A stretch of 64,000 nucleotides of DNA, taken from positions 32,440 through 96,439 of the IMG/VR virus record IMGVR_UViG_3300021256_000007; one strand, written 5' to 3'. The position numbers were made by a program, and so were the translations under genes. Below are positions 11,316-51,137 of the stretch, one piece after another. The stretch's first letter is position 1. Each line of letters begins with the position of its first letter. The notes under the pieces are model-generated. The model was not told the DNA's origin. It searched no databases and saw only the letters and a list, made by a program, of their open reading frames with translations. The stretch is from a virus. Taxonomy: Duplodnaviria; Heunggongvirae; Uroviricota; Caudoviricetes.

Positions 11316-12380
11316 ATGCCTAATGGTTTAATTGACGATCAGGGCAATTCTATTATTGCTATTATCGTTGAAGATCCGGCAACCGGGACAGAGGAATCGG
11401 TTCCAGTTAGCGCTGATCCTAAACTGCAAAGCAAAACGGTAACGCCTACTAGGGCTGGGCAAACAGTTTCTCCGGATTCGAATTATGACGGTTTGAGTTC
11501 CGTCACATTGCAGGGCATCCCGAATGAGTATGTTATTCCTTCGGGTACCCTTGCAATCAATCAAAATGGAATCAGAAATGTTGGTCAATATGCTCAAGTT
11601 AATGTAAACGTTGGTAGCTCAAAGCCTGCCGAAGGCGAAAGCTCAAAGCAGGCTCAGGCCTATCATTCAATTACAATCGGAACAAAAAACACTTGGGACG
11701 ACTGGCATCTGGTTCCAACATCCAGACCGACTTTCGCTATGCCGAATGTAAAAACCAATTATGTGGAAATACCGGGTGGCGATGGCGTTCTCGATCTTTC
11801 TACCGTGCTAACGGGCCGTCCGACTTACGGGAATCGTCAGGGAAGTTTCGAATTTCTCGTGATGAACGACTATGGTTACTGGGCTGATCGTTACAGTGAA
11901 ATAGCAAACTATCTGCATGGTAAGACGTTTAAAGCCGTTCTCGACGATGATCCTGAGTTTTTCTACGAAGGGCGATTCTCGCTGAATGAATGGCGAAGTG
12001 AAGAACAGTGGTCTAAGATCGTAATTGATTATAATGTCGGACCTTACAAACAGTATCTGAAATCGGCCGGTGATAGATGGCTTTGGGATCCGTTCGACTT
12101 TGAAAACGGTGTTATCAATAACTATCGTAATCTTATTGTAAACGGTACTCTGAACGTCACATATGTCGGCGATGTATATGAAACGTCTCCGATCATTACA
12201 TGTTCTAAGATCGATACCGATACTGCTTTTTCTATGAGCGTTACATTTAATAGTAAAACATACAAGCTAACAGCCGGTACTAATGTGCTTGATACGGTCA
12301 CGTTTGCGGCCGGAAATAATGAGCTCACTTTTACCGGAACTGGACGAATTAATATTGAAAATACGGGAGGCCGGTTATAA
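11316..12380 (+). CDS. distal tail protein (Dit-like) with an N-terminal repeat module shared with a fibre gene
   Basis: Position directly after the tape measure. The N-terminus carries LQSKTVTPTRAGQTVSPDSNYDGLSSVTLQGI, the same repeat type found in the 18527 fibre. Confidence 0.55.
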   Translation: MPNGLIDDQGNSIIAIIVEDPATGTEESVPVSADPKLQSKTVTPTRAGQTVSPDSNYDGLSSVTLQGIPNEYVIPSGTLAINQNGIRNVGQYAQVNVNVGSSKPAEGESSKQAQAYHSITIGTKNTWDDWHLVPTSRPTFAMPNVKTNYVEIPGGDGVLDLSTVLTGRPTYGNRQGSFEFLVMNDYGYWADRYSEIANYLHGKTFKAVLDDDPEFFYEGRFSLNEWRSEEQWSKIVIDYNVGPYKQYLKSAGDRWLWDPFDFENGVINNYRNLIVNGTLNVTYVGDVYETSPIITCSKIDTDTAFSMSVTFNSKTYKLTAGTNVLDTVTFAAGNNELTFTGTGRINIENTGGRL

Positions 12381-14395
12381 TGTTTAATATTTTTGCGGAT
12401 AACCGGTTAATCTATCAGCCGGGCAACGAAAAGCTTCGGCTGATTTCTCCGAAACTTACAGTGGAAATGGGTAAAGCGGGATCTCTTGAATTTACGATCC
12501 CGCCTACTCATACATATTTTAATGACTTAACACAACTGAAAACTATTTTAACGGTCACGATGGACGACGATGAGCTCTTTCGTGGCCGTGTTTTTTCCAA
12601 TAAGCGAAATTTTAATAATACCCGTGATATTTACGGTGAAGGTAATCTTGCCTATTTGGTCGATAGTGTCCAGAAAGGTGAGAAGTATACCGGCAAAGCG
12701 CATGCTCTCTTTAAAAAGATTATCGCGGCCCATAATAAAATGGTGCAGGATAAGGAAAAGCAGTTTACAGTTGGCAGTATTACCGTAGAAGATCGAGACG
12801 TGTTTCTTGCCGGACAATCTGACGAAATTATCGACCAGGAAACCAGCAAGTTTAACTATAAGCAGATAGCTATTAACTCGATTTCCGAGGAGTGGAAGAC
12901 GAGTTTTGACTACATCGAGTCTTGTCTGCTTGATTATGCCGGTGGATATTTGAGGACCAGACGCGATGATGCAACCGGAACCAATTATATTGACTGGCTG
13001 AAAGATTATTACGCCAAATCCACACAGACGATCGAGTTTGGTAAAAATATGCTTGACCTGACGGAAGAGATCAATGCCGAAGATGTATTTACGGTTTTGA
13101 TTCCCCTTGGCGATGAGAATCTGACAATTGCATCGGTCAACAAAGGAAGCATTGAACTTTCTGATCCAGTGGCTGTTGCAAAGTACGGGCGTATTGTTAA
13201 GACCAACGTGTTCGATGCCGTTACGAATCCTCAGACGTTGCTTGAAAACGGAAAAAGATATTTGGCGAACAATTCTGAGATGCCGATCACAATTACCGTA
13301 ACGGCTGTGGATCTGCATTTGCTGAATCCAAATATTCGGGCAATTTATGTTGGCGATAAGGTTCACGTTCTCTCTCACGGTCATGACATCGATAATTCTG
13401 ATCTTGTATGCACAAAAATTGAATATGATCTTTCGAATCCTGCCAATACAGTTTATACGTTCGGAAATCCTAAGCAAACTCTTACCGAGCGATACCGTAA
13501 GGATAAGAAACAGCAAGATAAGAGTGCCGGACGAGGCGGTGGCGGTGGCGGTGCGGCTGCTGAGGAAGCCGAAGAAAAAAACGCTGGAGATATTAAAGAG
13601 ATTTTTGACGCTTATATTGATGTTAAGCCTGAGGATGGAAAAATTACGCTTAAAGCTCTTTATGAGAAGCAAGTTAAGACTGAAACCGTTTTAAAAAATA
13701 ATGTCGGAATAAATCTTGATGCACCCTCCGGAAAAATTAATATTTATGCTGATCATGACAAAGTTGAAGAATTTATCGAAAACAATAAAGAATTAAAAAA
13801 TAATATAACACGTAAATTGGGAATAGATTTAGATGCTCCTGGTGGAACGTTAAATCTATACTCAATGTACAAAGACACACAAGATAATAAAAATAATATT
13901 GCGAGCATTGAACTCTGGTCCGGAAAAGATGGAAGCAAGGTTGCTATGAAAGCGGATCTTGTGAAAATTAAAGCTAAAGTTACCGAGATTACAGGTGCAC
14001 TTACTGTTGGTAGTAGAATTACAGCTGGAAGAGAAGTCGAAGCTCCGGGATTTTATGGAACATTATTATTTAGACAAAATATAGAAGTGGCTCAGCATAC
14101 ACATTCTCTAAGCGTATCAAGTGTTGGGACAGTAACGCTTGGCACTGCAACTAAATGGGGCGACGGAGTTACATCGTCTTTTAATATAGCCGACACTAAG
14201 TTTTATAAAGACGCAGTAGCGTCGGCGGCAAAAAATGTAAAAGCGTCTGGCATTAAATTAAAAGACGGTATGATTAAGAAAGGCGCGTCAAGAGCTAAAG
14301 TAAAAGTTACATTGTCAAATGGCACGACTCAATTTTTAACGCTCAGTCTTTATTATTATCCTGAAAGTAGTGGTGGAGGTAGCAGTCCACAGTAA
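12380..14395 (+). CDS. tail-associated protein (Tal / prophage tail endopeptidase-like N-terminus)
   Basis: 671 aa immediately after Dit. Contains a Gly/Ala linker GGGGGGGAAAEEAEE and a C-terminal extension. Confidence 0.55.
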   Translation: MFNIFADNRLIYQPGNEKLRLISPKLTVEMGKAGSLEFTIPPTHTYFNDLTQLKTILTVTMDDDELFRGRVFSNKRNFNNTRDIYGEGNLAYLVDSVQKGEKYTGKAHALFKKIIAAHNKMVQDKEKQFTVGSITVEDRDVFLAGQSDEIIDQETSKFNYKQIAINSISEEWKTSFDYIESCLLDYAGGYLRTRRDDATGTNYIDWLKDYYAKSTQTIEFGKNMLDLTEEINAEDVFTVLIPLGDENLTIASVNKGSIELSDPVAVAKYGRIVKTNVFDAVTNPQTLLENGKRYLANNSEMPITITVTAVDLHLLNPNIRAIYVGDKVHVLSHGHDIDNSDLVCTKIEYDLSNPANTVYTFGNPKQTLTERYRKDKKQQDKSAGRGGGGGGAAAEEAEEKNAGDIKEIFDAYIDVKPEDGKITLKALYEKQVKTETVLKNNVGINLDAPSGKINIYADHDKVEEFIENNKELKNNITRKLGIDLDAPGGTLNLYSMYKDTQDNKNNIASIELWSGKDGSKVAMKADLVKIKAKVTEITGALTVGSRITAGREVEAPGFYGTLLFRQNIEVAQHTHSLSVSSVGTVTLGTATKWGDGVTSSFNIADTKFYKDAVASAAKNVKASGIKLKDGMIKKGASRAKVKVTLSNGTTQFLTLSLYYYPESSGGGSSPQ

Positions 14396-14408
14396 AGGAG
14401 ATTCCTGA

Positions 14409-14627
14409 ATGATTACATTAAATGAGCTGACTGACGAGGTCATTCAGATTCAGCGACTTATCGATAGTCTTGAGGTTCGCGGTGGCAAGAATGCTTCTAT
14501 TCTTGCGGTTGCGTACGAGCATTGCGATTCGCTGATTCATAATCTGAAAGATGCTCTTCAAGAAATTCAAAATGAAAGTAAAAAAGTAGGTGAAGAGAAT
14601 GCCGAGATCGATACAAGACCTGCTTGA
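14409..14627 (+). CDS. hypothetical small coiled-coil protein
   Basis: 72 aa, RBS AAGGAG, overlaps the start of the next gene. Confidence 0.3.
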   Translation: MITLNELTDEVIQIQRLIDSLEVRGGKNASILAVAYEHCDSLIHNLKDALQEIQNESKKVGEENAEIDTRPA

Positions 14628-17205
14628 CGCTATTTCGAACGCACGGTACGGTGAAGATGTTCGAAGCGCTATACACGATAGCATTGAAACCTGCTATGAT
14701 AATGTAGCAGCATCTCAAACACTTGCGGACACTGCTGCTACACGAGCCAATACCGCAGCTGATTCAGCTGAAGATGCTACGATTGCTGCTAATAGTGCAG
14801 CGACTTCAGCTTCAACAGCTGCTTCTAGTACAGCAACAGCAATTACTAACGCAAATGCAGCAGCTGACAGTGCCAACGCTGCTGCTAGCTCCGCAAACCA
14901 GGCAGCGACAAATGCCAATACAGCTCGCGGAAACGCTGCTACGGCTGCTATTACCGCGAATCAAGCTGCGGCGTTCGCCAATCAAGCAAGAGACGCTGCT
15001 GTCACGGCAACGAGTGCTGCACAAACTGCAACTACCGCAGCGGAAACGGCTACGACGAGAGCTAACAATGCAGCCGATAGTGCAACCGCTGCTGCAAATG
15101 AAGCGACCTTAGTAAAAGATGATTGCTCTAGAGCCAGAATTGATACCGTTGCTGCGACAAATAGCGCGAATACCGCGACAGCTAGAGCTAATACGGCATC
15201 GGCTAGTATCGAAGGTCTTACTGTAACTTCTGAAACGGTTGGTCCAGATGCACAAGGCGGGGCCGAAGTCAGTGATGTCGATGGCCATAAGAATATTCAT
15301 TTTATTCTTAAACAAGGTCCCCAGGGCGCTCCAAATATCGTCAAGGGTTCTGCTTATGCGTCTCTTTCCGATCTGGAAGCTGAAATTGTAAATCCTGCAA
15401 TCGGCGATCAGTATAACGTAGGTACCGAAGCTCCTTACAATATTTATCGTTGGACCGGAGAAGATTGGGAAGATCAGGGACAGATCGGCGTTAACATTGA
15501 CAACCTTACGACATCTGAGATCGATACAATCTGGAACGGTACGACGATTCCTGGAACGAACAGCCGTTATATCAATCATACCGGTTTATTTCATTTGATC
15601 GTGAATAAAATCAAGGCTGCACTGAATAATAAAGTCGATAAGGTTACTGGCAAGGGCCTTAGTAGTAATGACTTCACGTCTACTTATATTAATCAGATTA
15701 ATAATCACGATTCGCAGATTCAGGCGCTTAGTTCGACCAAGGTTGACAAAGTAACCGGTAAAGATCTTAGTACAAATGATTTTACTGATGCTTACAAAGC
15801 TCAGATCGGAACAAATACGACTGATATTACGTCTTTGCGCTCTCAGTTTAATAATACTCCGATCGCAAATACGGTAAATGGCAAAACCGGAACTGTTGTT
15901 CTTGATTCCAAGGACATTGATATTTCCGAAGCTTTGTATTTCACGTCTGAGCCTTCTGATGTTCCTATTCAGCAGGCTATCGATGAAACTGAAAAAGCGG
16001 ATGCACGGATCTATGGCGGACTTACGAACTTTATGTACGCCTATCGTGTACCTTCAACAGAAAGCTTTACGGCGCAGGATATTTTGACGGCTGCTGCGAA
16101 TGAAAAGCAGGTTTACAGCACTTATAGCTGGGACTATATTACGACTGTAGATCCTGATGGAACTTACCCGCTTTCAGGCATTCCGTTATACGACGCAAAT
16201 AATCCGTCAAACGTTCTTAATCCTAACGGCAAAGTAACTTCCTGTGCTACTGCTATTACGAATATTCTCTATCGTCTTGGTCTGACTGATATTTCGAATC
16301 CGTCGGCTTCTGATACTGAGATTCGCGGTAAGACTCGTTACTCAGAGGCTCGCCGTCCCGAATGCAGTTTGCCGCATTATCTGCAGCAGCGTGGCTGGAC
16401 GATGATCCATACGGAAAGTGAACTGACGGCCGGTGATATTGTTTTCTGTCGCCGTTGTGTCTATCCGGATGAGAGACGTTATAATCCAGCTCATGCGTTT
16501 ATTTATGCGACGGCTACGACCGCTTATGATTTCGGTTCCCAGACGAATGTACGAAGCGGTGGTACTGACGCAATTGACTGGCGTACCGGCGGCTCTATCG
16601 CGAGCTTTGGCTGGAGACCGACGCTGTTCGGTTTTGTTGGTGATGCGAACGATCCTTACGTAGCTGGCGATACATTATGGTCCGGTAGAACTACTCAGAG
16701 AATTCTTTCCGATGGTACTCCGGCGCTCGTTGCTGAGCTTCAGAATGCAGATTCGCTTCGGTATGTGGATATTATTACGTCTGTAAATGCGGAAAGTGGA
16801 CAGCTTGTAAGTAATAGAATTCAATACCCTATCACAGTAACAACACCGTTTACCAACCATTCCGGTTTGTTTACAAAAGTTAAACTATATAAATCTGGTA
16901 CAATTCGCTGTAGCTTTTTCGGAACATCGAATAACATTTCGAAGTCCGTCGGTTATTACATAATCTTTAGCTTTAACAGTTTTACGAATCCAAAACATAA
17001 ATTTTTCACGTACGATACAGTTGGTGATGCTGCTGCAAATGCTGAAAAAGCGTTAGATATTTATACGCCCATTACGGCATCAGGCGTCATTGGACATTTT
17101 TATACGCACACTGAAAACAATATTACTACGATTCGCATGAGTGTTTCAGCTGATATTCCTAATGGAACTGCTATTTCGGCGTTCTGGCAAATGCAGCTTA
17201 ATTAA
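14599..17205 (+). CDS. tail fibre protein with an Ala-rich low-complexity N-terminal region and a C-terminal Cys/His peptidase-like (NlpC/P60 or CHAP-like) domain
   Basis: The ATG at 14599 has an AGGTGA RBS; the track starts at a GTG at 14590. About 200 aa are of A/N/S/T repeats (AANSAATSASTAAS...). The C-terminus has Cys (VTSCATAITNILYRLG) and His (NPAHAFIYA) about 85 aa apart. Confidence 0.45.
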   Translation: MPRSIQDLLDAISNARYGEDVRSAIHDSIETCYDNVAASQTLADTAATRANTAADSAEDATIAANSAATSASTAASSTATAITNANAAADSANAAASSANQAATNANTARGNAATAAITANQAAAFANQARDAAVTATSAAQTATTAAETATTRANNAADSATAAANEATLVKDDCSRARIDTVAATNSANTATARANTASASIEGLTVTSETVGPDAQGGAEVSDVDGHKNIHFILKQGPQGAPNIVKGSAYASLSDLEAEIVNPAIGDQYNVGTEAPYNIYRWTGEDWEDQGQIGVNIDNLTTSEIDTIWNGTTIPGTNSRYINHTGLFHLIVNKIKAALNNKVDKVTGKGLSSNDFTSTYINQINNHDSQIQALSSTKVDKVTGKDLSTNDFTDAYKAQIGTNTTDITSLRSQFNNTPIANTVNGKTGTVVLDSKDIDISEALYFTSEPSDVPIQQAIDETEKADARIYGGLTNFMYAYRVPSTESFTAQDILTAAANEKQVYSTYSWDYITTVDPDGTYPLSGIPLYDANNPSNVLNPNGKVTSCATAITNILYRLGLTDISNPSASDTEIRGKTRYSEARRPECSLPHYLQQRGWTMIHTESELTAGDIVFCRRCVYPDERRYNPAHAFIYATATTAYDFGSQTNVRSGGTDAIDWRTGGSIASFGWRPTLFGFVGDANDPYVAGDTLWSGRTTQRILSDGTPALVAELQNADSLRYVDIITSVNAESGQLVSNRIQYPITVTTPFTNHSGLFTKVKLYKSGTIRCSFFGTSNNISKSVGYYIIFSFNSFTNPKHKFFTYDTVGDAAANAEKALDIYTPITASGVIGHFYTHTENNITTIRMSVSADIPNGTAISAFWQMQLN

Positions 17206-17221
17206 TTTTTATATTCTATGG

Positions 17222-17253
17222 GGAAAGCTCCTTCGGGGGCTTTCTCTTTTTTA
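17222..17253 (+). terminator. rho-independent terminator
   Basis: Stem GAAAGCTCC/GGGGCTTTC followed by a T-tract. Confidence 0.55.
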
Positions 17254-17278
17254 TTCCTTAGCGCGGAGGTGATATCCG

Positions 17279-17608
17279 TTGATTCGAGGTACAACACCGA
17301 CTTTTACGTTTACGATCCGAGACGAAAATCTCAATCTGAACGAAGCGGCAAATGTATATGTAACGATCGCTCAAAGCGGTAAACTGATTGAAAGATCTAC
17401 GGGAGACGCATCACTTAACGTTGATGGTCGAACCGTATCTTTATGGCTTACTCAGGAAGAATCTCTGCGTCTAACGGAAGGAGTTAACGCGGAAGTTCAG
17501 ATCAACTGGACTTACATGGATTCCGACGGAGTTACCGTTCGGCGAGCGGCGACCAAACTTAAAACGATTCCGATCACGAAGCAGTTGTTAAAGCGGGTGA
17601 TTGAATGA
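17279..17608 (+). CDS. hypothetical structural protein
   Basis: TTG start with GGAGGTGA RBS, 109 aa. Confidence 0.4.
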   Translation: MIRGTTPTFTFTIRDENLNLNEAANVYVTIAQSGKLIERSTGDASLNVDGRTVSLWLTQEESLRLTEGVNAEVQINWTYMDSDGVTVRRAATKLKTIPITKQLLKRVIE

Positions 17609-17910
17609 TAGCCACTGCTCTTGAACCGATCTATTTGGACGTAGATCTTTCCATCGAAGAGTATGACTTTGAGCTTGAAGAAATCGCCGAATTTGACTGT
17701 GAGTTAGAAACAGCAATTATCATCAATACGATCACAGGGGACATGTATGAAGGTCCGTATCATGTGATTCCGACATTTGATGACCAGGAATTGCTGACAA
17801 AAGACAAGACCATGCGTGAAGACGTGACGGTCGAACCAATTCCTGTAAGCCGAACCAGCAATCTGGCTGGCGGCACGACAGTATATATTGGAGGAAACTT
17901 AAATGGCTAA
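17605..17910 (+). CDS. hypothetical acidic protein
   Basis: 101 aa, overlapping start/stop with neighbours. Confidence 0.4.
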   Translation: MIATALEPIYLDVDLSIEEYDFELEEIAEFDCELETAIIINTITGDMYEGPYHVIPTFDDQELLTKDKTMREDVTVEPIPVSRTSNLAGGTTVYIGGNLNG

Positions 17911-18499
17911 TCAATACAACTCTAAAGTAGTTCTCGCATCCGGCGAGGTACTTATTGACCTGACTTCGGATACCGTCGACGCTGCGCATTTACTTAAGAA
18001 CTATACGGCGCATGGTAAGGACGGCGCTCCGATTACAGGTTCCTGCACTTACGATTCCGACACCAGTGCTGATACCGCTGCTGTTGGCGAAATTCTTTCC
18101 GGCAAGACTGCGCATGCCCGTGGTACCCAGCTTACGGGTACGATGACGAACAATGGCGGCGTTACCGGTACGATTACGACCGTTGGCGGCAGCTATACGA
18201 TCCCCCAGGGCTATCATGACGGCTCCGGCACGGTAAGCATTTCCTCGACCGAGCAGGCCAAGATTATTGCTGAGAATATTCGTGAGGGTATTACGATTCT
18301 GGGCGTTGAGGGTACGATGAGTGGCTCTGAGGATATGAGCGCTCAGGCAAAGACCGTTACCCCGACGTTTACTCAGCAGGTAATTTCTCCTGATACTGGC
18401 TACAACTGCCTTAGTCAGGTGACTGTTAATGCGATTACGGTTACCTATACCGATAACTCCGCCGGCGGTAAGACGGTGACTATCGGCTCGGCCGCGTAA
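17903..18499 (+). CDS. tail fibre family protein (shared N-terminal anchor domain), paralog 1
   Basis: N-terminus MANQYNSKVVLASGEVLIDLTSDTVDAAHLLKNYTAHGKDGAPITG matches the N-termini of 18527, 21570 and 22674. The C-terminus has the repeat TPTFTQQVISPDTGYNCLSQVTV. Confidence 0.5.
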   Translation: MANQYNSKVVLASGEVLIDLTSDTVDAAHLLKNYTAHGKDGAPITGSCTYDSDTSADTAAVGEILSGKTAHARGTQLTGTMTNNGGVTGTITTVGGSYTIPQGYHDGSGTVSISSTEQAKIIAENIREGITILGVEGTMSGSEDMSAQAKTVTPTFTQQVISPDTGYNCLSQVTVNAITVTYTDNSAGGKTVTIGSAA

Positions 18500-18526
18500 A
18501 TTCAAAATGGAAGGAGAGTGCCTTGA

Positions 18527-20203
18527 ATGGCAAACAATCGCGTAGAACTTGCCAATGGCACTGTTCTTATTGATCTTACAGATACTACGGCCGTAGCAGA
18601 AGATGTTGCGGCCGGTAAGTATTTTTATGGAGCAAATGGCGTAAAGACACTTGGTACGGCCACACATGATACCGGAGTTGTTTTAACCGGTGAAATCGAT
18701 GCCAAGGGCGGTAAGATCCTGCATATCAATGGCCCGTCTACGGAAACGATCGTTGTCGACCTGAACGGCGGGGAAATTGAGAACATCAGTGCTACCGTTT
18801 TGCTTGATATTTCTGATGACACGGTTACTGCGGAAAGTTTACTGCGTGGCTATACTGCCCATGATTCGATGGGTAGAGCGATCGTCGGTCAAGCTGTTCC
18901 GTCGACAGACAATATCAGCGGCGTTTACGTGACTGATCCTGAGACCGGAGAGAAACTTATTGATTTCGAGCTTCCGTCTGGAACGCTTAACATTACGGCA
19001 AATGGCCAGTACAATGTGGCGGAATACGCCGGAGTAAATGTCGCTGTTCCTACGTCCGGAGGCGGTTCTACCCTTGGCACGAAGACCGTCACGGCAAACG
19101 GAACTTATAACGCGACTGATGATTCTCTAGACGGATATTCTTCGGTGACTGTTAATGTCCCAAGCTCAGCTCCAAATCTCCAAACCAAATCGGCAACTCC
19201 TTCTACCAGCGCTCAGACCATTACACCTGATAGCGGATACGACGGGCTTAGTTCCGTTTCGATTTCTGCTATTCAGACACAGACCAAGAGCGCCACACCG
19301 TCTGAGACAGCTCAAACAGTTACTCCTGACAGCGGCAAGTATTTGACTTCTGTTTCTGTTGGAGCGATCAGTAAAACATATGTCGGTTCTGAGGTTGCAA
19401 GAAAGTCTTCGACCGATTTGACGACAAGCGGAGCCACGGTTTCTGTTCCGGCAGGTTATTACGCGGAAGCGGCAAGTAAGGCCGTTGCAAGCGGTTCTGC
19501 TTCCACTCCTGCAACGACAATTACGGCTAATCCGACGATTTCGGTAAGTGCAACCGGATTGATCACGGCAACTGCTTCGGCAAGCGAAAGTGTTACGCCG
19601 TCCGTTTCTGCGGGTTATATTTCTTCCGGTACTGCCGGGACGATTTCTGTGAGTGGTTCCAAGACACAGCAGCTTACTGCACAGGCAGCCAAGACCGTAA
19701 CTCCTACCGAAACGGAACAGACGGCGGTTGCTTCCGGTGTCTATACGACTGGTGTTGTGAAAGTCGGAGCTATTAGTAGCACTTATGTTGGCTCCGGAAT
19801 AACGCGGCGAGACGGTGATGATCTCTCGGCTTCTGGCGCAACGGTTACTGTTCCTGCTGGTTATTACTCTGCACAGCAGACTAAGAGCGTTGCAAGCGGA
19901 ACAGCGGGTACACCGACTGCGACCAAAGGCACAGTCAGCAATCATTCTATTACGGTAACTCCGAGTGTAACCAATACGACTGGTTATATTTCCGGCGGCA
20001 CAAAGAATGGTACAGCGGTCACGGTTTCTGCGAGTGAGCTTGTTAGTGGAAGTACGACGATAACTTCGAACGGAACGACTGATGTTACGAATCTGGCTTC
20101 GGTTACGGTAGCCGTTCCCATCGTTACATATTATACGGGAAGCTCTGATCCGGCGTCATCCCTCGGTTCTGATGGGGATATTTATCTGAAGACGGGAGCG
20201 TGA
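18527..20203 (+). CDS. tail fibre protein, paralog 2 (tandem N-terminal anchor domains plus Ser/Thr-rich repeats)
   Basis: The N-terminal anchor domain occurs twice in tandem (residues ~1-45 and ~85-125). There are three copies of the ~32-aa TPxxxAQTxTPDSGYDGLSSVS repeat and a duplicated SGATV(S/T)VPAGYY segment. The exact 13-mer lies 14 nt upstream. Confidence 0.55.
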   Translation: MANNRVELANGTVLIDLTDTTAVAEDVAAGKYFYGANGVKTLGTATHDTGVVLTGEIDAKGGKILHINGPSTETIVVDLNGGEIENISATVLLDISDDTVTAESLLRGYTAHDSMGRAIVGQAVPSTDNISGVYVTDPETGEKLIDFELPSGTLNITANGQYNVAEYAGVNVAVPTSGGGSTLGTKTVTANGTYNATDDSLDGYSSVTVNVPSSAPNLQTKSATPSTSAQTITPDSGYDGLSSVSISAIQTQTKSATPSETAQTVTPDSGKYLTSVSVGAISKTYVGSEVARKSSTDLTTSGATVSVPAGYYAEAASKAVASGSASTPATTITANPTISVSATGLITATASASESVTPSVSAGYISSGTAGTISVSGSKTQQLTAQAAKTVTPTETEQTAVASGVYTTGVVKVGAISSTYVGSGITRRDGDDLSASGATVTVPAGYYSAQQTKSVASGTAGTPTATKGTVSNHSITVTPSVTNTTGYISGGTKNGTAVTVSASELVSGSTTITSNGTTDVTNLASVTVAVPIVTYYTGSSDPASSLGSDGDIYLKTGA

Positions 20204-20207
20204 CGGT

Positions 20208-21566
20208 ATGCCCACAATACGATTAATACCAAGCATTTTCTATAACGCTGCCGGCACGTCCTATCTGACTGTCAGCAATCAGAGCAATGCATATACCAAT
20301 ACCGACAGTACAACGTACGCGACAGTAGATAATACTTACGCATCCACGACAAACCGATACGTCTATCTTCAGGGTTTTAACTTCAATGATATTCCGGCTT
20401 CTGCTGTTATAAATTCATTCAATATCAAACTTAAAGCGAATGAATCTGGCGGTTCTACGTCTTCATCTTACCGACCGGTTCTGTGTAAAGGAACGGCGAC
20501 ATACAGTAACGCTTATTGCAATGCGATTACGACAACTGTTTCGGTTCATGAGTTTTCGTTTACTCAGGACTTCGCAACGTTCCGGGATGACGGCGAGGAG
20601 TTCGGCATTCGTATTAACTGTAGACGAGGATCTAGAAATACTGAGGCTTCGTTTCATATTTACGGTGCTGAGATCGAAGTCGATTATACGATCCCGAATC
20701 CTTGCACGATTACGACAACACTGAACGGCAACGGAACAATTTCTCCAAGCGGGACAACCGAAACCGTTGAAGGCACTGAGTTCGAGCTTACGATTACACC
20801 GACCGATAAGAGTGAACAGGTCACTGTCACTAATAACGGTACTGATGTAACCAGTCAGCTTGTGGCTCATGGTACAGGAGGAAGCGGATCGTATACGGCT
20901 GACGATGTAACGACAAGCGGAATCCAGAGCGGCTCGTCTTATGCAGAGTATGCTGTAGGCCATACGGCTGAAAATCCGTCAAGTTCCGGAACTAGCAGCA
21001 ACATGTACGCATCCAGCAGCTCAACAGGCTATGCTGCGTATTCGTTTGACTTCAGTTCTATTCCGAGTAATGCGACGATCGAGGCTGTTGAAGTTCGATG
21101 CTATGGACATCGTGAATCCAGTACGATCAGCTCGACCTATGTTTCGCAGTGTGTTTTATATCAGGGTTCTACGGCGATTAGCGATGAAGTCGATTTTCCA
21201 TCTACGTCGAACAGTCTGATAACGGTAACACCGACATCCCTTCCGACAAGATCGCAACTTGATAACGTGACGCTTCGGCATTACGTCGGCTATTACGGTG
21301 GTCTTGTTCTTGGTATTACGTTCGAAGTTACTTATTCTACCGGAACCGGGATCGATCATTATACCTATACGTTCACGACGACCGGAAACACGGCAATTGT
21401 GGTTACGATCGGAAGCGTTCAGACGGATAAACTGTACTTTAAACAAAACGGCTCGTGGGTTGCCGCTACGAAAGCCTACAAAAAAGTAAACGGAGTCTGG
21501 GTCGAACAAACAGATCTGACTACGGTATTTCAAAATGGAATTAATTACGTGAAAGGAGTGGTCTAA
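20208..21566 (+). CDS. tail protein with an internal domain duplication
   Basis: 452 aa. The N-terminal ~130-aa domain recurs at residues ~250-380. A 13-mer variant lies in its 3' end. Confidence 0.45.
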   Translation: MPTIRLIPSIFYNAAGTSYLTVSNQSNAYTNTDSTTYATVDNTYASTTNRYVYLQGFNFNDIPASAVINSFNIKLKANESGGSTSSSYRPVLCKGTATYSNAYCNAITTTVSVHEFSFTQDFATFRDDGEEFGIRINCRRGSRNTEASFHIYGAEIEVDYTIPNPCTITTTLNGNGTISPSGTTETVEGTEFELTITPTDKSEQVTVTNNGTDVTSQLVAHGTGGSGSYTADDVTTSGIQSGSSYAEYAVGHTAENPSSSGTSSNMYASSSSTGYAAYSFDFSSIPSNATIEAVEVRCYGHRESSTISSTYVSQCVLYQGSTAISDEVDFPSTSNSLITVTPTSLPTRSQLDNVTLRHYVGYYGGLVLGITFEVTYSTGTGIDHYTYTFTTTGNTAIVVTIGSVQTDKLYFKQNGSWVAATKAYKKVNGVWVEQTDLTTVFQNGINYVKGVV

Positions 21567-21569
21567 TCT

Positions 21570-22661
21570 ATGGCAAATGCAAAAGTAACCCTGAATGAAA
21601 CCACTCTGATGGATGTTACCGGGACGACTGTAGATGCCGACCATCTGCTGGAAGGCACTACAGCTATTGGCCCGGACGGGGAATTGGTTGTTGGAACTGC
21701 AAGTGGTGGAGGAGACACTCTGGCCGCGCTGCTTAGCAATGAGCTTACCGAGTATTCTTACAATGGAACATCTATTCAACCATATATGTTTCGAGATAGA
21801 ACAAATTTGGAGAGTATTGAATTACCTAATGTTGCGACGATTCCGTCATACGCATTCAGAGGTTGTTCGTCTTTAAACGATGTCGATATCTCCAGTGCAA
21901 CAAGTATTGGTGAATATGCGTTTAGCAACTGCGTTGCTTTAGATGAGATAAGTTTGCCATCTGTAACAACTATTAATAATTATGCTTTTGATGGTTGCAC
22001 AGCGTTGTCTAGTATAAGCAGTGATACAGTAACATCAGTTGGACTTTCTACAAACAATTATGGAAGAAGTTTTCAGTCATGCACTTCTTTGCAAAGTGTT
22101 TCATTCCCAAACGCGACTTACATTGCCGATAGAACATTTATAAGTTGCTCAAATTTAGTATCTGTTAATTTTCCAAATTTATTGACTTGTGGACGTGCCG
22201 GTACCGACGCACATATTTTTGACGGTTGCAAAAAACTACAGCTGTTACATTTGCCAAAATTAACAAATGCATATGGAGTTGGAGCGTTCTGGGGGATTGG
22301 ATCGTCAACAAGTTATGTTACTATCGTTCTTCCGGCTATTACAGGAGTAGTATCATCTTTTCGCCAATCGTATTGTGAAGCTGTTGATATCGGACCAGGA
22401 TTCGCAGGTCCACTCGATGCCTATAATTTTTATTCAGGAACTTATAGAAATATAATTCTTCGTAATCCAGACGCAGTTGTTACTTGCACTGCGGCAAATT
22501 CGATTTACAGCATTAACAGTTCAACTAAGGTATTCGTTCCTTCAAGTCTGGTTACTGCTTATAAAGAAGCCACTAACTGGAGCACAAAAGGCGATATTTT
22601 CTACTCCATCGAAGGCAGTATTTATGAAAACGCCTATGCTGATGGAACGCCGATTTCTTAA
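21570..22661 (+). CDS. tail fibre / receptor-binding protein with BspA-type leucine-rich repeats, paralog 3
   Basis: Shared N-terminal anchor (MANAKVTLNETTLMDVTGTTVDADHLLEGTTAIG). Repeats of the form SxxxIGxxAFxxCxxLxxIxLP. Conserved C-terminus EGSIYENAYADGTPIS. Confidence 0.55.
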   Translation: MANAKVTLNETTLMDVTGTTVDADHLLEGTTAIGPDGELVVGTASGGGDTLAALLSNELTEYSYNGTSIQPYMFRDRTNLESIELPNVATIPSYAFRGCSSLNDVDISSATSIGEYAFSNCVALDEISLPSVTTINNYAFDGCTALSSISSDTVTSVGLSTNNYGRSFQSCTSLQSVSFPNATYIADRTFISCSNLVSVNFPNLLTCGRAGTDAHIFDGCKKLQLLHLPKLTNAYGVGAFWGIGSSTSYVTIVLPAITGVVSSFRQSYCEAVDIGPGFAGPLDAYNFYSGTYRNIILRNPDAVVTCTAANSIYSINSSTKVFVPSSLVTAYKEATNWSTKGDIFYSIEGSIYENAYADGTPIS

Positions 22662-22673
22662 GGAGGTGACGTA

Positions 22674-23498
22674 ATGGCCATTGCTAAAATTACTTTAAAC
22701 GGTACAACTCTTATGAACGCCACAGACGTCACAGCCACGGCTGAAGATATTATCGCTCCTGCCACGGCCATGATCGCCAACGGAACGAAACCGGTTGGAA
22801 CGGCAAGTGGAGGAACCCAGATCGATTGGGATGGATTTGTTGATGGCTCTTGGCCAATCGGCGACGTAGAAGTGTCTTCGGCCATCACATCAATAGCGAA
22901 CTATGCTTTATATAATAGATCTGGAATTACATCACTTTCAGCATCTAGCGTAACCTCGATCGGCAGTAATGCAATGTCAGGATGCCATACTCTCAGCAGT
23001 ATTGAATTACCAGAATGCGTAAGCATTGGTGCAAGTGCTTTTTATGCTTGTTATTTATTAACGAATGTTTCTCTTCCTAAATGCACAACATTAGCGCAAT
23101 CATCATTTTACGGAGCCGGTCAAGATGTCCCAAGCGGAAATAGAATTTGGGTTTTCCCGGCTTTAACGGCAGTACCTTCTGACGGATTTCGTCAGTTTGG
23201 TTGTGACACATTAGATCTTGGCCCATCGTGTGCATCACTCGGAACACGCGCTTTTTATCAGCCTACCTACGGCGGTTATGTTAAAGCGCTGATCTTACGG
23301 AAATCCGATGCTGTTGTTACGGCTACAGCAACCAATACACTTGATAAAGTAAATGCGTCTACAAAAGTTTATGTTCCATCGGCTTTGATCAACTCGTATA
23401 AAGAAGCCACTAACTGGAGCGCAAAAGGTGATATTTTTTACCCCATTGAAGGCAGTATTTACGAAAACGCCTATGCTGACGGCACACCGATTACTTAA
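22674..23498 (+). CDS. tail fibre / LRR protein, paralog 4
   Basis: Shared N-terminal anchor, LRR-like repeats, C-terminus EGSIYENAYADGTPIT. Confidence 0.55.
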   Translation: MAIAKITLNGTTLMNATDVTATAEDIIAPATAMIANGTKPVGTASGGTQIDWDGFVDGSWPIGDVEVSSAITSIANYALYNRSGITSLSASSVTSIGSNAMSGCHTLSSIELPECVSIGASAFYACYLLTNVSLPKCTTLAQSSFYGAGQDVPSGNRIWVFPALTAVPSDGFRQFGCDTLDLGPSCASLGTRAFYQPTYGGYVKALILRKSDAVVTATATNTLDKVNASTKVYVPSALINSYKEATNWSAKGDIFYPIEGSIYENAYADGTPIT

Positions 23499-23510
23499 AG
23501 GAGGCAAACA

Positions 23511-23732
23511 ATGATAATTCAAGAACATTTTGATATTAACGGTCGAGACTTCATTCGTACGGTCTCCGATGCAAATCGGTATGTCGTGCGCGATGGCGTT
23601 TCGTATTCTGAGGCTTGCGATCCGGCCGAATTTAATCGCGAGTATACTGAAGGCGATCTGATGGATCAGGAAGAAATCGAATCTAACGCACAGGAGATCC
23701 TTGATATTCTTATGGGAGGCAAAGAAGCATGA
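23511..23732 (+). CDS. hypothetical acidic protein
   Basis: 73 aa, RBS AAGGAGG. Confidence 0.35.
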   Translation: MIIQEHFDINGRDFIRTVSDANRYVVRDGVSYSEACDPAEFNREYTEGDLMDQEEIESNAQEILDILMGGKEA

Positions 23733-24127
23733 CACGAGAAAAAGCCTATGCTCTTAGAGCAATGATTGAAAAAGCCAGCGCCTCTCTCGATGATGAGGAT
23801 GCACTTGAGGCCATTGAACTTTTCCCAAACTGGACGAGTGACAAACATTATACGGTTGGGGTAAGGGTGCGATTCGAAGGTACCCTTTATTCGTGTCTGC
23901 AGGAGCATGATTCTCAGGAATCTTGGACACCTGCTGCTGCGCCCTCTCTTTGGGCAAAGGTTCTTATTCCCGAACCTGAAGTGATTCCGGAATGGGAACA
24001 GCCCGACAGTACGAATCCCTATAAGATTGGTGACAAAGTACGTCATAATGGACTTATTTGGGTCTCTACAGTTGACGGCAATGTTTGGGAACCAGGCGCA
24101 TATGGATGGGAGGTTGTCTCTGAATGA
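23729..24127 (+). CDS. putative carbohydrate-binding protein (two CBM5/12-like modules)
   Basis: Two W/Y-rich modules: YTVGVRVRFEGTLYSCLQEHDSQESWTPAAAPSLWAKV and YKIGDKVRHNGLIWVSTVDGNVWEPGAYGWEVV. They resemble the chitin-binding type-3 pattern. Confidence 0.35.
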   Translation: MTREKAYALRAMIEKASASLDDEDALEAIELFPNWTSDKHYTVGVRVRFEGTLYSCLQEHDSQESWTPAAAPSLWAKVLIPEPEVIPEWEQPDSTNPYKIGDKVRHNGLIWVSTVDGNVWEPGAYGWEVVSE

Positions 24128-25380
24128 GTGTAACCGGTTTTTTAATTAACGGTGAAAAACAAAAGTATGATCATCGGGCTTTAGATAATGCTCCGATTCA
24201 GCCTGGCGAAGGTGATAATAGTTTTGTTGCAGTAAATGAAACCGATCCAAATGAAGCTACGGAGTATGGTGCTGTTGTTCTCGGAGGATCGAGCAATACG
24301 GCAAGTGGAAGAAATTCAGCAGCACTTGGCTCAAATAATATTGCTTCCGGGCAATCGAGCATCTCTTTCGGCGGTAAGATTTCAGGTTTTAATGCAAATG
24401 AATCCAGTAACAACGGAACAATAGTTATTGGTTCATCGAGTCAGGCAACGATGCCTTATGCAGTCGCTATTGGAGCAAAAAATGCAGCAACGGCAAGTTA
24501 TGCAGTCGCCATGGGCTGCCAAACTACAGCGTCTGGTAATCTCGGTTTTACCAGTGGATATTCAACTACTGCGTCTGGTGCTGCATCCGTTGCCATGGGA
24601 CGTGAAACGACCGCTTCTGCCCAATATGCTATGTCCGTGGGTTATGGAACAAATGCTTCCGGTGCTTCCTCCACGGTTATCGGCCAGTATAACGTAGTCG
24701 ATACGGGTGACACATCGGCGACTCACGGTGCGGGCGCAAAGAATTATCTTATGATCGTAGGTAACGGAGCTGCCGATAATGATCGTTCAAACGCCTTAAC
24801 ACTTGATTGGGACGGTAATCTCGATGTCGCCGGTAGTGTTCGTGTAAATGGTACTCCGATTGGTTCAAATACATTTGTAGCCACCTACGGCACAACTACC
24901 AGTGCAGAAATCGAAGCGGCATTTCAGGCAGGGAAATTCATTTATGTGGAAGTTCCGAGTAATGGCCGCAGGATGTACCTTACGGTTCGCATAAGTGCAA
25001 CAGAGCATCGCTTTGGCAGTATACATTATTCTGACGGTATTCCCGCGATGTACGCAGCTACCTGTGTGAATGATAGCTGGAGTGGCATCGGTAGAACCCT
25101 TGTAAACCAGAATTCGTTCGCCACATCTTTCGGCGATTCTCAAGCATATGCGATCGGCGACTATTGTATTCACGACGGATATTTATATCGCTTTACTTCA
25201 GCGCACGCAGCCGGGGCATGGAGTGACAGCCACGCGACGCAGGTTAAACTGGTAGATGAAGTGCAGAATAAAGTCAATGCTAACCAAGGCACTGCCAATG
25301 CCGGAAAGTTCTTGGTGGTCGGCTCGGATGGTATCGTGACTCCTGTTACAATGCAGGCATGGAGTGGAGGTAGTTACTGA
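24124..25380 (+). CDS. tail fibre protein with Gly/Ser/Ala-rich hemagglutinin-like repeats
   Basis: Repeats of the form AxGxxSxAxGxxSxA (TASGRNSAALGSNNIASGQSSISFGG...). 418 aa. Confidence 0.5.
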   Translation: MSVTGFLINGEKQKYDHRALDNAPIQPGEGDNSFVAVNETDPNEATEYGAVVLGGSSNTASGRNSAALGSNNIASGQSSISFGGKISGFNANESSNNGTIVIGSSSQATMPYAVAIGAKNAATASYAVAMGCQTTASGNLGFTSGYSTTASGAASVAMGRETTASAQYAMSVGYGTNASGASSTVIGQYNVVDTGDTSATHGAGAKNYLMIVGNGAADNDRSNALTLDWDGNLDVAGSVRVNGTPIGSNTFVATYGTTTSAEIEAAFQAGKFIYVEVPSNGRRMYLTVRISATEHRFGSIHYSDGIPAMYAATCVNDSWSGIGRTLVNQNSFATSFGDSQAYAIGDYCIHDGYLYRFTSAHAAGAWSDSHATQVKLVDEVQNKVNANQGTANAGKFLVVGSDGIVTPVTMQAWSGGSY

Positions 25381-26246
25381 TGGCACTTGATAAATTAGTT
25401 GACAGTGCTCAGCTCGATGCTGATCTCACCTCTGTTGCCAATGCCATCCGCACCAAGGGTGGGACAAGCGGGAGCCTCGCGTTCCCGGCTGGGTTTGTGA
25501 GTGCTGTTGAGGCGATTGAGACAGAGGGAGGCGGGATCTCATTCGACGAGATCGCCATGCGAACATTTTCCGAGGATGTGGTTGTCTCAACGGAAGGACT
25601 CAAGCCATATGCCTTTTCTGATTCAAGTATTACCAGTTTTGTAGGTAACAGCGTAATTGGCAACGACTATGTCGCGTCGAAAACTGTCGGGTCAAATGTT
25701 TTCGCTGGCTGCAAAAGCCTGAAACGCATCGAAATGAGAGAGTTTATAAACAGCGTTTCCAATGCCGACTATCTTTTTGATGGATGTACAGCGCTTGAAA
25801 CGGTCATACTTCCCAAGTTTCAGCGAGGCCGCAATTATGTGTTTCGGAATTGCTCTTCGCTCACCGGAATTGTGCTGCCGAGCTATCGGTATTCCAACAC
25901 AGGTGCATTTTCCGGCTGTTCCAACCTTGAATATGCCGATATGGGGCAACTTGTGACACCAGGTTCCGGAATTCCCGGTGCAGATTTCCAGAACTGCGCG
26001 AAGCTTAAGACACTGATTCTACGCTACTCATCCATGCGATCTCTTGGGAATATCAGTGCTTTTACAGGTACGCCGTTCGCATCTGACGGCTCAGGCGGCA
26101 CACTCTATGTACCGTCAGCACTAATTTCCAACTACCAATCGGCGACCAACTGGTCAACCATTCTCGGCTATGAAAACAATAGCATCCAAGCCATCGAGGG
26201 TAGTATCTATGAGACGCAGTATGCCGACGGTACACCAATTACTTAA
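25380..26246 (+). CDS. LRR-type fibre paralog 5 (divergent N-terminus, conserved C-terminus)
   Basis: LRR-like repeats. C-terminus EGSIYETQYADGTPIT is shared with 21570 and 22674. Confidence 0.5.
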   Translation: MALDKLVDSAQLDADLTSVANAIRTKGGTSGSLAFPAGFVSAVEAIETEGGGISFDEIAMRTFSEDVVVSTEGLKPYAFSDSSITSFVGNSVIGNDYVASKTVGSNVFAGCKSLKRIEMREFINSVSNADYLFDGCTALETVILPKFQRGRNYVFRNCSSLTGIVLPSYRYSNTGAFSGCSNLEYADMGQLVTPGSGIPGADFQNCAKLKTLILRYSSMRSLGNISAFTGTPFASDGSGGTLYVPSALISNYQSATNWSTILGYENNSIQAIEGSIYETQYADGTPIT

Positions 26247-26917: not shown

Positions 26918-26956
26918 AGTCCCTCTAAGATCACTCTTAGAGGGACTATTTTTTTA
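26918..26956 (+). terminator. rho-independent terminator ending the structural operon
   Basis: A 13-bp stem AGTCCCTCTAAGA/TCTTAGAGGGACT followed by a T-tract. Confidence 0.65.
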
Positions 26957-26980
26957 CACCGTCTATTTTTTTTTGCTCAG

Positions 26981-44158: not shown

Positions 44159-44192
44159 TTGATATTTGCATTACGAAAGGAGAATTCTGAAT

Positions 44193-51093: not shown

Positions 51094-51137
51094 AAGTCGT
51101 AGATTTTACAACTGTTTATATGGAGGTGAAAAGAAAT

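Follow-up and report, generated by a model that had tools for sequence, protein, structure and literature searches.

T-even gp38 (in T2, T6 and Salmonella phage S16) is the adhesin at the tip of the long tail fibre, where it sits on gp37. It is a separate protein encoded directly downstream of the fibre gene; its N-terminal part attaches to the distal fibre tip, and its receptor-binding part is hypervariable, mosaic and exchanged between phages. In branched multi-tailspike phages (CBA120 with TSP1-4, G7C with gp63.1/gp66, Klebsiella phiK64-1, SP6/K1-5), enzymatic tailspikes attach to the particle or to each other through short conserved N-terminal modules, either T4 gp10-like/XD domains or T7 gp17-like N-termini. 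The receptor-binding proteins (RBPs) of lactococcal and streptococcal siphophages are likewise modular (shoulder, neck and head; BppU/BppL baseplate in TP901-1), and attach through a conserved N-terminal part, while host range is decided by a C-terminal head that can be exchanged. The design principle of fixed heads and swapped binding bodies is already known; the modules described here are uncharacterised.

The locus studied here resembles gp38/gp37 in having a separate, hypervariable and exchanged adhesin encoded directly 3' of a fibre gene, for which we infer a similar tip attachment. It differs in lacking detectable similarity in sequence or fold (neither Pfam nor PDB gave a match), in a body of BspA-type leucine-rich repeats (LRR) instead of the gp38 polyglycine sandwich, in a host that is probably a Gram-positive gut anaerobe, and in the presence of several junction types in one genome. 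As in the multi-tailspike phages, there are several candidate receptor-binding proteins per genome, with C-terminal parts swapped horizontally at a module boundary, but the head is a 47-aa two-hairpin unit without a detectable relative of solved structure and no enzymatic domains were seen. With the lactococcal and streptococcal siphophages it shares siphovirus character, a probable Gram-positive host, a position after Dit/Tal, and the combination of conserved N-terminus and exchangeable C-terminus; unlike them, it has a much larger set of genes, junctions in chain-like order, LRR bodies, and no match to BppU_N or known RBP families (Pfam, PHROGs). The bodies of g21570, g22674 and g25380 (genes are named by their start position) score above the PF13306 threshold, as BspA-type surface proteins do; unlike those, they come from a phage, are short at 274-363 aa, show no obvious secretion signal, and carry phage-specific heads and a 17-aa C-terminal tag, followed by a gene pair for a ~75-aa and a CBM5/12 protein.

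The window (the whole 64,000-nucleotide stretch analysed) belongs to a ~96-kb siphovirus-like gut phage whose host probably lies in Oscillospiraceae/Clostridia. The fibre block spans 17279-26246, with TMP-Dit-Tal directly 5' of it:

11316-12380, plus strand: Dit (distal tail protein), phrog_33 E 4e-14 over aa 119-347
12380-14395, plus strand: Tal-type tail tip protein, PF06605 Prophage_tail E 8.4e-21, phrog_3558 E 1.9e-93
14590-17205, plus strand: 871-aa fibre-like protein, Ala-rich N-terminus, GKGLSSNDFT-type repeats
17220-17257: terminator-like hairpin after the 14590 gene (terminator scan)
17279-17608, plus strand: g17279, conserved, 109 aa, first gene of the portable fibre module, phrog_15594 E 5e-14
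17605-17910, plus strand: g17605, conserved 101-aa adaptor, always immediately 5' of the g17903 orthologue
17903-18499, plus strand: g17903, highly conserved 198-aa scaffold, phrog_13589 positions 735-939 of 1042
18527-20203, plus strand: g18527, 558-aa Ser/Thr-rich fibre, N-dom subtype a at 18527-18673 and 18770-18907
20208-21566, plus strand: g20208, conserved 452-aa scaffold or fibre protein, best 120 listed non-self homologues 72-85% identical
21570-22661, plus strand: g21570, N-dom subtype b (21570-21713), hypervariable BspA-type LRR body, tag (22608-22658)
22674-23498, plus strand: g22674, N-dom subtype b (22674-22817), LRR body, tag (23445-23495)
23511-24127, plus strand: g23511 (73 aa, acidic) and g23729 (132 aa, two CBM5/12 modules), conserved pair after tag-bearing LRR genes
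24124-25380, plus strand: g24124, YadA/UspA1-head-like fibre, YadA_head 37.2 bits (cut-off 25) in three stretches
25380-26246, plus strand: g25380, type-2 head (25380-25520; not N-dom), LRR body, tag (26193-26243)
26918-26957, plus strand: terminator-like hairpin after g26270, 13-bp stem then T-run, closing the fibre module

The Dit gene lies between those for a 2018-aa TMP and the Prophage_tail protein, as for siphovirus Dit; no Pfam Dit_N match was found. The Tal gene scored 75.2 bits for PF06605 (Pfam cut-off 31.3). The 14590 product gave weak PHROG tail matches only and no Pfam or PDB match. Strong terminator-like hairpins flank the block at both ends. Homologous block genes of relatives sit between the tail genes and holin/endolysin, and the position between Dit/Tal and lysis genes fits receptor-binding proteins; in one relative (L004) the block is relocated away from the Dit/Tal genes and adjoins an integrase. 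A portable tail-fibre/adhesin module is the best reading of 17279-26246. An earlier note had suggested a switchable host range. The fibre genes all lie on one strand, and the six inverted pairs in the region are short, imperfect (18-23 nt) and not meaningful as inverted repeats; neither invertible fibre segments nor a DGR was recognised, with no RT or invertase among ten large ORFs elsewhere in the window, and the suggestion found no support. Four N-dom genes are at the high end, most relatives having two, but L035 and L039 also have four.

We compared the N-terminal ~47 aa (N-dom) of g17903 (aa 1-52), g21570 (aa 1-48), g22674 (aa 1-48) and g18527, which has two copies (aa 1-49 and 82-127; HMM E 5.9e-25 and 4e-24). 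The earlier note had claimed a shared ~45-aa domain in these four genes and named a non-significant alignment as grounds for giving it up. The similarity was significant in pairwise local alignment (z = 7.3-15.6 against 1000 shuffles in 9/10 pairs; z = 2.6 for the weakest, g17903-g22674), and blastp (38-45% identity over 37-58 aa) and profile search agreed. The two copies in g18527, described as tandem, are both present but are separated by a ~32-aa module. The supposed weaker version in g25380 was excluded (z = -2.0 to 0.6, no HMM match). Instead of one shared anchor there are two N-dom subtypes (a in g17903 and g18527, b in g21570 and g22674) and a third, unrelated head in g25380, each coupled to a different upstream product.

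A profile of the five copies matched 9,713 cluster representatives at E<=1e-3, and in about three quarters of the top 150 matches a complete unit begins at residue 1-7. The region belongs to no Pfam or NCBIfam family, has no PDB match by sequence or fold, and in PHROGs matched families of unknown function only; no sequence or structure match to known fibre/RBP N-terminal anchors (T7 gp17-N, BppU_N, gp10-like) was found. The AF2 model of N-dom was of moderate confidence (pLDDT 73), and that of g17903 failed (pLDDT 41). A protein G B1-like (beta-grasp) assignment was considered and rejected, as neither the family profile nor the predicted fold matched GB1. Across phages N-dom is followed by LRR_5, BclA_C/C1q-like, DUF285, Trp_ring, PKD and mostly unknown domains, of which BclA_C, Trp_ring and LRR are of fibre-tip type, and its BFVD relatives carry the names tail protein, tail fiber and C1q-like.

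The LRR bodies were identified by LRR_5 (PF13306; gathering cut-off 27.7 bits) in g21570 (E 9.5e-31, 106.8 bits), g22674 (9.6e-27, 93.8 bits) and g25380 (1e-15, 58.2 bits), in agreement with the BspA-type repeats first noticed there. The near-identical ends of these genes were also borne out: all three close with the 17-aa tag IEGSIYE(N/T)(A/Q)YADGTPI(S/T), and their last 57 nt are 88% and 75% identical in DNA. Close relatives revealed how the bodies vary. L035 is 91% identical in nucleotides over window positions 14177-21709; identity ends at nt 21709 (codon 47 of g21570, the end of N-dom), is back at 22606-22813 (g21570 tag plus g22674 N-dom), is lost again and is back at 23445. In close relatives N-dom is 95-98% identical in amino acids and the LRR body ~20%, and L035 has a g25380-like body behind its g22674-type N-dom. 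Since similarity is lost at the N-dom end and regained at the tag in both LRR genes, the bodies are exchanged as cassettes. Between close relatives whole bodies are replaced, and the breakpoints coincide exactly with the module boundaries; this is the swapping downstream of N-dom that the earlier note proposed to look for in related phages. In ten loci the type-2 head (MA.DKLVDS.QLD.DLTSVANAIRTKGGTS..LAFP.GF, well conserved and present on many other LRR proteins) is 64-89% identical in amino acids, with third codon positions at 34-62% and LRR bodies at 18-37%. Heads and tag are kept at the protein level while synonymous sites diverge.

The comparison with relatives upheld the earlier picture of a conserved N-terminal attachment-type module joined to diverse, exchangeable C-terminal binding domains. 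Not all block genes are binding-domain variants, however. The block mixes strongly conserved scaffold proteins (g17279, g17605, g17903, g20208 and g23511/g23729) with hypervariable distal ones, to which the three LRR products and, probably, g18527 belong. For g17903 there are >8000 homologues, and the top 120 of the listing are 79-99% identical; the best non-identical homologue of g21570 is 50% identical. g17279 is syntenic in many relatives.

We asked whether heads are matched to the gene before them. Among 43 related LRR genes, head type correlated with the last 35 aa of the upstream product (Mantel r = 0.74, reached in 0/2000 permutations) but did not follow the LRR body (r = 0.18); with body controlled for, the partial r was 0.74, in a test that is unsupervised and on loci that are not phylogenetically independent. 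By this measure head type varies together with the final ~35 aa encoded by the gene just upstream, independently of the LRR body. Motif classes, which were defined after data inspection, paired heads and tails nearly one-to-one (type 2, 11/11; type 7, 6/6; type 5, 3/3; type 6, 3/4; type 3, 2/2). The g24124 tail class lies 5' of 11/11 type-2-head LRR genes examined, and in the window the g24124 tail ...NAGKFLVVGSDGIVTPVTMQAWSGGSY (25297-25377) overlaps the g25380 start. Subtype a N-dom follows N..GG.TV.IG tails at 36/36 junctions motif-assigned to that tail class. The g17605 tail ...SNLAGGTTVYIGG (nt 17854-17907) is followed directly by an N-dom gene, as is, always, g17903, with tail DNSAGGKTVTIGSAA (18452-18496). 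The g20208 tail KKVNGVWVEQTDLTTVFQNGINYVKGVV (nt 21480-21563) precedes a subtype-b N-dom gene, as do g20208-like tails at 5/5 non-redundant junctions; these come from five loci, of which two are close relatives of the window. Fusions also occur: P0189 has an A-module, short linker and N-dom in a single polypeptide, and in L103 and L086 a g17605-like module heads an LRR protein, in L103 after a g17279-like gene; in L103 and L047 a g17279 homologue lies directly 5' of LRR genes.

From these junctions we propose, at roughly even chances, that the conserved scaffolds carry hypervariable tip adhesins, each head docking on the tail of the preceding product. Each head would act as a plug, docked non-covalently at the C-terminal tip of the protein encoded just before it, giving three putative assemblies, g17279 > g17605 > g17903 > g18527, g20208 > g21570 and/or g22674, and g24124 > g25380. 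In these, the LRR bodies would lie exposed as adhesins at the tip and set host specificity, and the conserved ends would also supply homology for the exchange of cassettes. g22674 comes after an LRR tag, not the g20208 tail, and so would have to share or compete for the docking site.

The model of the earlier note, a common baseplate anchor, would have the N-dom proteins attach separately to one site (the Dit extension, Tal or g17279), giving a virion with several parallel fibres rather than head-to-tail chains. We consider it unlikely. It would account for a module common to four genes of one genome and for the restriction of complete-unit N-dom-headed ORFs to loci with the g17279/g17605/g17903 trio (none was found in IMG/VR loci or L040-L043 lacking a g17903-like gene), but not readily for two subtypes tied to different upstream tails or for the relocation of the block from Dit/Tal in L004. 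The contigs that encode the BFVD relatives of N-dom carry sipho-, myo- and podovirus labels, so a single baseplate partner is unlikely unless it travels with the module. The ~35-aa A-repeat, common to Dit and fibres, speaks for this model and had been taken as a baseplate-to-fibre link. Dit has a ~118-aa N-terminal extension with one A-repeat (aa 35-70, nt 11418-11525; HMM E 1.1e-22) and one B-module (nt 11544-11612). L039 and L038 have retained the N-dom genes, and their Dit proteins lack this extension and its A-repeat; the Dit A-repeat is dispensable in these relatives, and the proposed link is not supported.

A reading that we hold to be quite improbable is that there is no docking: heads would simply be the first units of fibres built from repeats, conserved through descent; the conserved ends would be mere homology patches for recombination, and the coupling would be linkage of neighbouring DNA. 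Tail and head are 0-30 nt apart and physically linked, so linkage alone could explain some of their co-inheritance. The breakpoints lie at edges of conserved DNA. The C-terminal half of N-dom also recurs within proteins as a repeat (as many as 15 copies in one; 12 tandem units in P0121), so N-dom could be a capped first repeat instead of a dedicated docking domain; the complete unit, however, occurs almost exclusively at residue 1. Descent and linkage fit poorly with heads that keep 64-98% protein identity while third codon positions in more distant loci are at 34-62%, and with variation of both flanking gene bodies: upstream proteins range from 104 to 812 aa, mostly without detectable mutual homology, and the ~75-aa junction alone is kept. 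That the LRR/variable proteins are lysogenic-conversion or accessory (moron) proteins acting on the host surface or in the gut is highly improbable. In favour of it, BspA-type LRR proteins are chiefly known from bacteria, as surface adhesins (PF13306 description in Pfam), and the L004 block adjoins an integrase, a typical moron position. Against it, no signal-peptide-like N-terminus was apparent by eye in the translations; the genes share the orientation of fibre-like genes and overlap them at start and stop codons; the LRR protein of smaller phages is the sole candidate receptor-binding protein between Tal and lysis genes; and fibre tips of C1q/BclA-like and trimeric-autotransporter-like type are among the members of the N-dom family.

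g23729 is a double CBM5/12 protein (PF02839 E 2.9e-16, 59.6 bits against a cut-off of 26.2, two stretches), and the g23511/g23729 pair lies 3' of LRR genes in L035, L039, L040, L042 and ~20/38 tag-bearing ORFs of IMG/VR loci. The repeat fibre g24124 is assigned on YadA-head repeats, with a weak UspA1-head match (3ntn, E 0.005) and a C-terminal CBM5/12 score of 16.3 bits, under cut-off. An internal duplication of g20208 had z = 4.9 and no blastp self-match, and is weakly supported. In g17903, N-dom subtype a (nt 17903-18058) is joined by a single repeat unit of ~95 aa and one A-repeat (aa 145-180, 18335-18442), and g17605 has a degenerate A-repeat in its C-terminal part. The count of this repeat, given as ~32 aa, held for g17903 and Dit (once each); the three copies reported for g18527 are two full copies (aa 216-251 and 249-282, 19172-19279 and 19271-19372; E 8.5e-22 and 5.8e-19) and a half-copy (aa 388-399, 19688-19723). 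g18527 also has B-modules at 18980-19048 and 20048-20116 and a 135-aa internal duplication, with a direct DNA repeat at 19430-19494 / 19835-19899.

The fibre genes lie in the late region of a siphovirus-like phage, all on one strand, behind the following genes (fibre genes are named by their start position, as in g17903).

Tape-measure protein (TMP), 2018 aa: first in order, before Dit
11316–12380: Dit, a tail-tip protein (phrog_33)
12380–14395: Tal, a tail-tip protein (PF06605)
14590–17205: 871-aa fibre-like protein, after Tal and before the genes of the finding

The 871-aa protein is Ala-rich at its N-terminus, contains repeats of the KVDKVTGKGLSSNDFT type and has Cys and His residues in its C-terminal domain; Pfam and PDB searches returned no match. 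In two related loci (L001 and L039), the first ~400 aa are kept and the C-terminal part is replaced. When the 15-kb region was compared with 50,697 phage records by megablast, no near-identical phage was matched. With tblastn, g17903 matched four of these records, of which only Oscillospiraceae phage NatCom_27610 (Ca. Heliusvirales; 59% identity) carries gene annotation, the matching gene being a hypothetical protein. Since homologues in species-representative genomes sit mostly in Clostridia/Oscillospiraceae MAGs, with some in Bacteroidales bins, the host is probably among gut Clostridia.

In an all-against-all blastp comparison, the N-termini of g17903, g18527, g21570 and g22674 were 38–45% identical over 37–58 aa, and a second copy was found at residues 82–127 of g18527. 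By local alignment, nine of the ten pairs of copies scored above all 1000 shuffles (z = 7.3–15.6), the exception being g17903–g22674 (z = 2.6). The N-terminal domain (N-domain, ~47 aa) that the earlier note had seen in these four genes is thus real. Its supposed weak version in g25380 is not: alignments there gave z of –2.0 to 0.6 and the N-domain HMM had no match. The g25380 N-terminus is a separate, well conserved head (type-2 head, MA.DKLVDS.QLD.DLTSVANAIRTKGGTS..LAFP.GF). A profile built from the five N-domain copies matched 9,713 cluster representatives at E ≤ 1e-3 and 1,197 at E ≤ 1e-10 (both counts refer to representatives of 50% identity clusters), and among the 150 best matches about three in four have the complete unit beginning at residue 1–7. 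Its C-terminal half, D.T.DTV.A..LL.G.TA....G....G, recurs internally in up to 15 copies; one related protein, P0121, is made of 12 tandem ~95-aa units, each matching residues 53–140 of g17903. Therefore, the N-domain combines an N-terminal beta-hairpin with the motif that opens a widespread fibre repeat. No family for it was found in Pfam or NCBIfam, PHROGs returned only families of unknown function, and NCBIfam had no family for any of ten proteins tested. The C-terminal domains detected among 110 diverse N-domain-headed proteins were LRR_5 (8), BclA_C (3), DUF285, Trp_ring and PKD; most of these proteins had no recognisable C-terminal domain.

Residues 8–58 of g17903 showed a weak match to protein G B1 sequences, both engineered and natural, a resemblance that we rejected as chance because neither the family profile nor fold searches reproduced it. 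An AF2 model of full-length g17903, from a shallow alignment of 32 homologues in which no row fell below 79% identity, had a pLDDT of 41.5, too low for a fold search. We also rejected the idea that the N-domain copies evolve in concert or underwent recent gene conversion: they share no DNA repeats of 20 nt or longer, and the paralogues are 27–46% identical to the g17903 copy.

Next, the conservation of the block in related phages was examined. g17903 has over 8000 homologues, of which the 120 best are 79–99% identical and 195–200 aa long, and the best 120 homologues of g20208 are 72–85% identical; for g21570 the best non-identical homologue is merely 50% identical. The g17279/g17605/g17903 trio is syntenic over some 25 diverged loci and is always followed there by another N-domain gene, of 71–541 aa. 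g21570, g22674 and g25380 all reach the Pfam LRR_5 threshold, and their bodies are true PF13306 members. Their near-identical ends, already noticed from the sequence, were confirmed: the final 17 residues (the tag, IEGSIYE..YADGTPI) are common, and at the DNA level the terminal 57 nt show 88% and 75% identity. A related locus, L035, has the gene order of the window and 91.4% nucleotide identity to positions 14177–21709, but the similarity stops at codon 47 of g21570. It returns at 22606–22813 (94%), from the 17 final codons of g21570 through the spacer to codon 47 of g22674, is lost after 22813, and is back at 23445 with the 17 codons that end g22674. The N-domains are 95–98% identical at the amino acid level where the LRR bodies are ~20% identical. 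L035 also joins a g22674-type N-domain to a g25380-like body, and the g21570 N-domain precedes at least three different bodies (those of g21570 itself and of the related proteins P0257 and P0272). The comparison that the earlier note had proposed for cassette swapping thus places the breakpoints at the N-domain end and at the tag, supporting modular exchange. Dit/Tal (11696–13504) are ~67% identical to L035 at the nucleotide level versus 91% across 14177–21709, so the tail-tip genes are also mosaic relative to the fibre block.

The tag-bearing LRR module was found behind many different heads; in smaller siphophages it lies in the tail module directly after Dit/Tal, and in many cases a ~75-aa gene, a CBM5/12 gene and then the lysis genes come next. 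Head type corresponded almost one to one with the C-terminal motif of the gene immediately upstream. In motif classes drawn after inspection of the data, the type-2 head followed a ...G.FLV.NGS.W..QTL..W.GG.Y tail (11/11), the PLTDAINALTRYAN head a ...Y..AL.ALG tail (6/6) and the MTLKDILI head a ...W(D/N)G..WVEQ tail (3/3), and two more types paired in 3/4 and 2/2 cases. Because these classes were post hoc, an unsupervised Mantel test was run on 43 non-redundant genes, taking the last 35 aa of the upstream protein as its tail. Similarity of heads tracked that of upstream tails (r = 0.74, matched in 0 of 2000 permutations), and the partial correlation with the LRR body controlled was likewise 0.74; the body itself correlated at r = 0.18 with the head and r = 0.14 with the upstream tail. 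The proteins encoded upstream have mostly unrelated bodies and vary in length from 104 to 812 aa. Amino acid identity among type-2 heads was 64–89% versus just 34–62% identity at third codon positions, which points to selection acting on the head protein.

The N-domain itself occurs as two subtypes. Subtype a (..G.vLIDLT; g17903, g18527) follows N..GG.TV.IG tails at 36 of 36 junctions, these being the ones assigned to that tail class by motif, and subtype b (LNGTTLMD.T; g21570, g22674) follows g20208-like tails (5/5) or the LRR tag (2/2). What had been described as one shared anchor domain is common to the four genes, but it divides into two subtypes with different upstream tails, and the g25380 head is unrelated. 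With both subtypes included, at least seven cognate head/tail types were seen. N-domain-headed ORFs turned up only in loci also encoding a g17903-like protein. One related protein, P0189, is a single chain of A-module, short linker and N-domain; in L103 and L086 a g17605-like module heads an LRR protein, and in L103 a g17279-like gene lies before it. Such fusion proteins join the modules covalently. From covariation, gene fusions and gene position, we infer that each head docks on the tail of the preceding gene product. The main caveats are that neighbouring DNA is physically linked, that the loci are not independent and that the second half of the N-domain is a repeat.

The block would then be a portable fibre module of three head-to-tail assemblies: g17279, g17605, g17903 and g18527 in the first; g20208 followed by g21570 and/or g22674 in the second; and g24124 followed by g25380 in the third. 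Exchangeable tip proteins would be carried on conserved scaffolds, with the LRR bodies as putative adhesins determining specificity. In L004, this block is found beyond the lysis genes, adjoining an integrase, a position that fits mobility of the module. Strong terminator-like hairpins with T-runs at 17220–17257 (12-bp stem) and 26918–26957 (13-bp stem) bracket g17279–g26270, which suggests a transcription unit apart from TMP-Dit-Tal. In a tentative extension, which we lean somewhat against, a plug-and-socket code would govern in general how gut Firmicutes phages build their receptor-binding apparatus: each N-terminal head would fit the C-terminal tail of the preceding product, and scaffolds and BspA-type LRR tip adhesins could recombine freely at these junctions. 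If true, gene order could reveal fibre architecture and eventually host range, and cassette swaps could re-engineer both.

The ~35-aa A-repeat occurs in two full copies and one half copy in g18527 and once each in g17903 and Dit, with a degenerate copy in g17605; a second short module, G..(I/V)..NG..(D/N)V..(Y/L)A.V.V.V, goes with it in Dit and g18527. The Dit copy had been proposed to link baseplate and fibres, and a docking site there was considered; Dit of both L039 and L038 lacks the repeat, and the N-domain gene set is nevertheless present, so neither proposal was retained. The A-repeat looks like a promiscuous spacer module. The CBM5/12-like assignment of g23729 was borne out, this being a double CBM5/12 protein; g24124 carries YadA/UspA1-type head repeats; and the internal duplication reported for g20208 was weakly supported. 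The 132-aa double CBM5/12 protein and a ~75-aa acidic protein (23511–24127) form a conserved pair directly 3' of tag-bearing LRR genes, seen also in L035, L039, L040 and L042, at about 20 of 38 tag-bearing ORFs of IMG/VR loci, and usually immediately before endolysin and holin. The pair may serve as a chaperone, in accessory binding or in assisting lysis. In L001 (10624–12913), the g18527 equivalent is split into 291-aa (N-domain) and 327-aa (repeat) genes with a CBM5/12 gene between, a gene fission at module borders.

Four N-domain genes are present in L035 and in L039, and most relatives have two. The four of the window are at the top of this range, but the count is matched in both close and more distant relatives. 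A switchable host range had also been suggested; we saw no inverted repeats supporting invertible switching, nor any other sign of it. The related Oscillospiraceae phage L038 (PV036438.1; locus 12699–14000) has an annotated DNA invertase immediately 3' of its lysis genes, and no counterpart of it or invertible segment was seen in the fibre block of the window.

In other phages, the principle that one end is conserved for attachment and the other, for binding, is swappable is well established. The closest parallels in mode of action would be the T2/S16 gp38 adhesin on gp37, branched multi-tailspike phages, whose adaptor modules are N-terminal, and the modular receptor-binding proteins of lactococcal phages; searches detected homology to none of these. 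The finding is real and partly reinterpreted, and its design is a variant of one already known. In the searchable literature, including that on BspA/LRR phage receptor-binding proteins and on Heliusvirales, we found no description of these heads and modules, the tag, or LRR_5 receptor-binding proteins. To our knowledge, the receptor-binding proteins of gut Clostridia phages are essentially uncharacterised. These phages count among the most prevalent viruses of the human gut, with reported broad host ranges (bioRxiv 10.64898/2026.01.26.701711); such reports in gut Firmicutes phages make the locus relevant, without direct bearing on it. The locus gives a very large N-terminal module family without Pfam, NCBIfam or PDB entry, exact boundaries for the exchange of LRR adhesin bodies, and a testable rule tying each head to the preceding protein's tail, which, if true, would aid annotation of fibre assemblies in metagenomic phages, prediction of the specificity-determining part and design of chimeric fibres.

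Elsewhere in the window, a 216-aa protein (27844–28494) has a hydrophobic segment near its N-terminus and matches SleB-type Hydrolase_2 weakly, as does its L039 homologue; it is possibly an endolysin with a signal anchor. Genes for three tRNAs (Leu-TAA, Gln-TTG and Met-CAT) lie within 50764–52531, and the accessory genes at 44166–45257, 56926–57549, 58518–59366, 59845–60432 and 60920–61747 encode SPFH/Band 7, Phage_lysozyme2, DUF5662, dCTP deaminase-like and ADP-ribosylglycohydrolase proteins.
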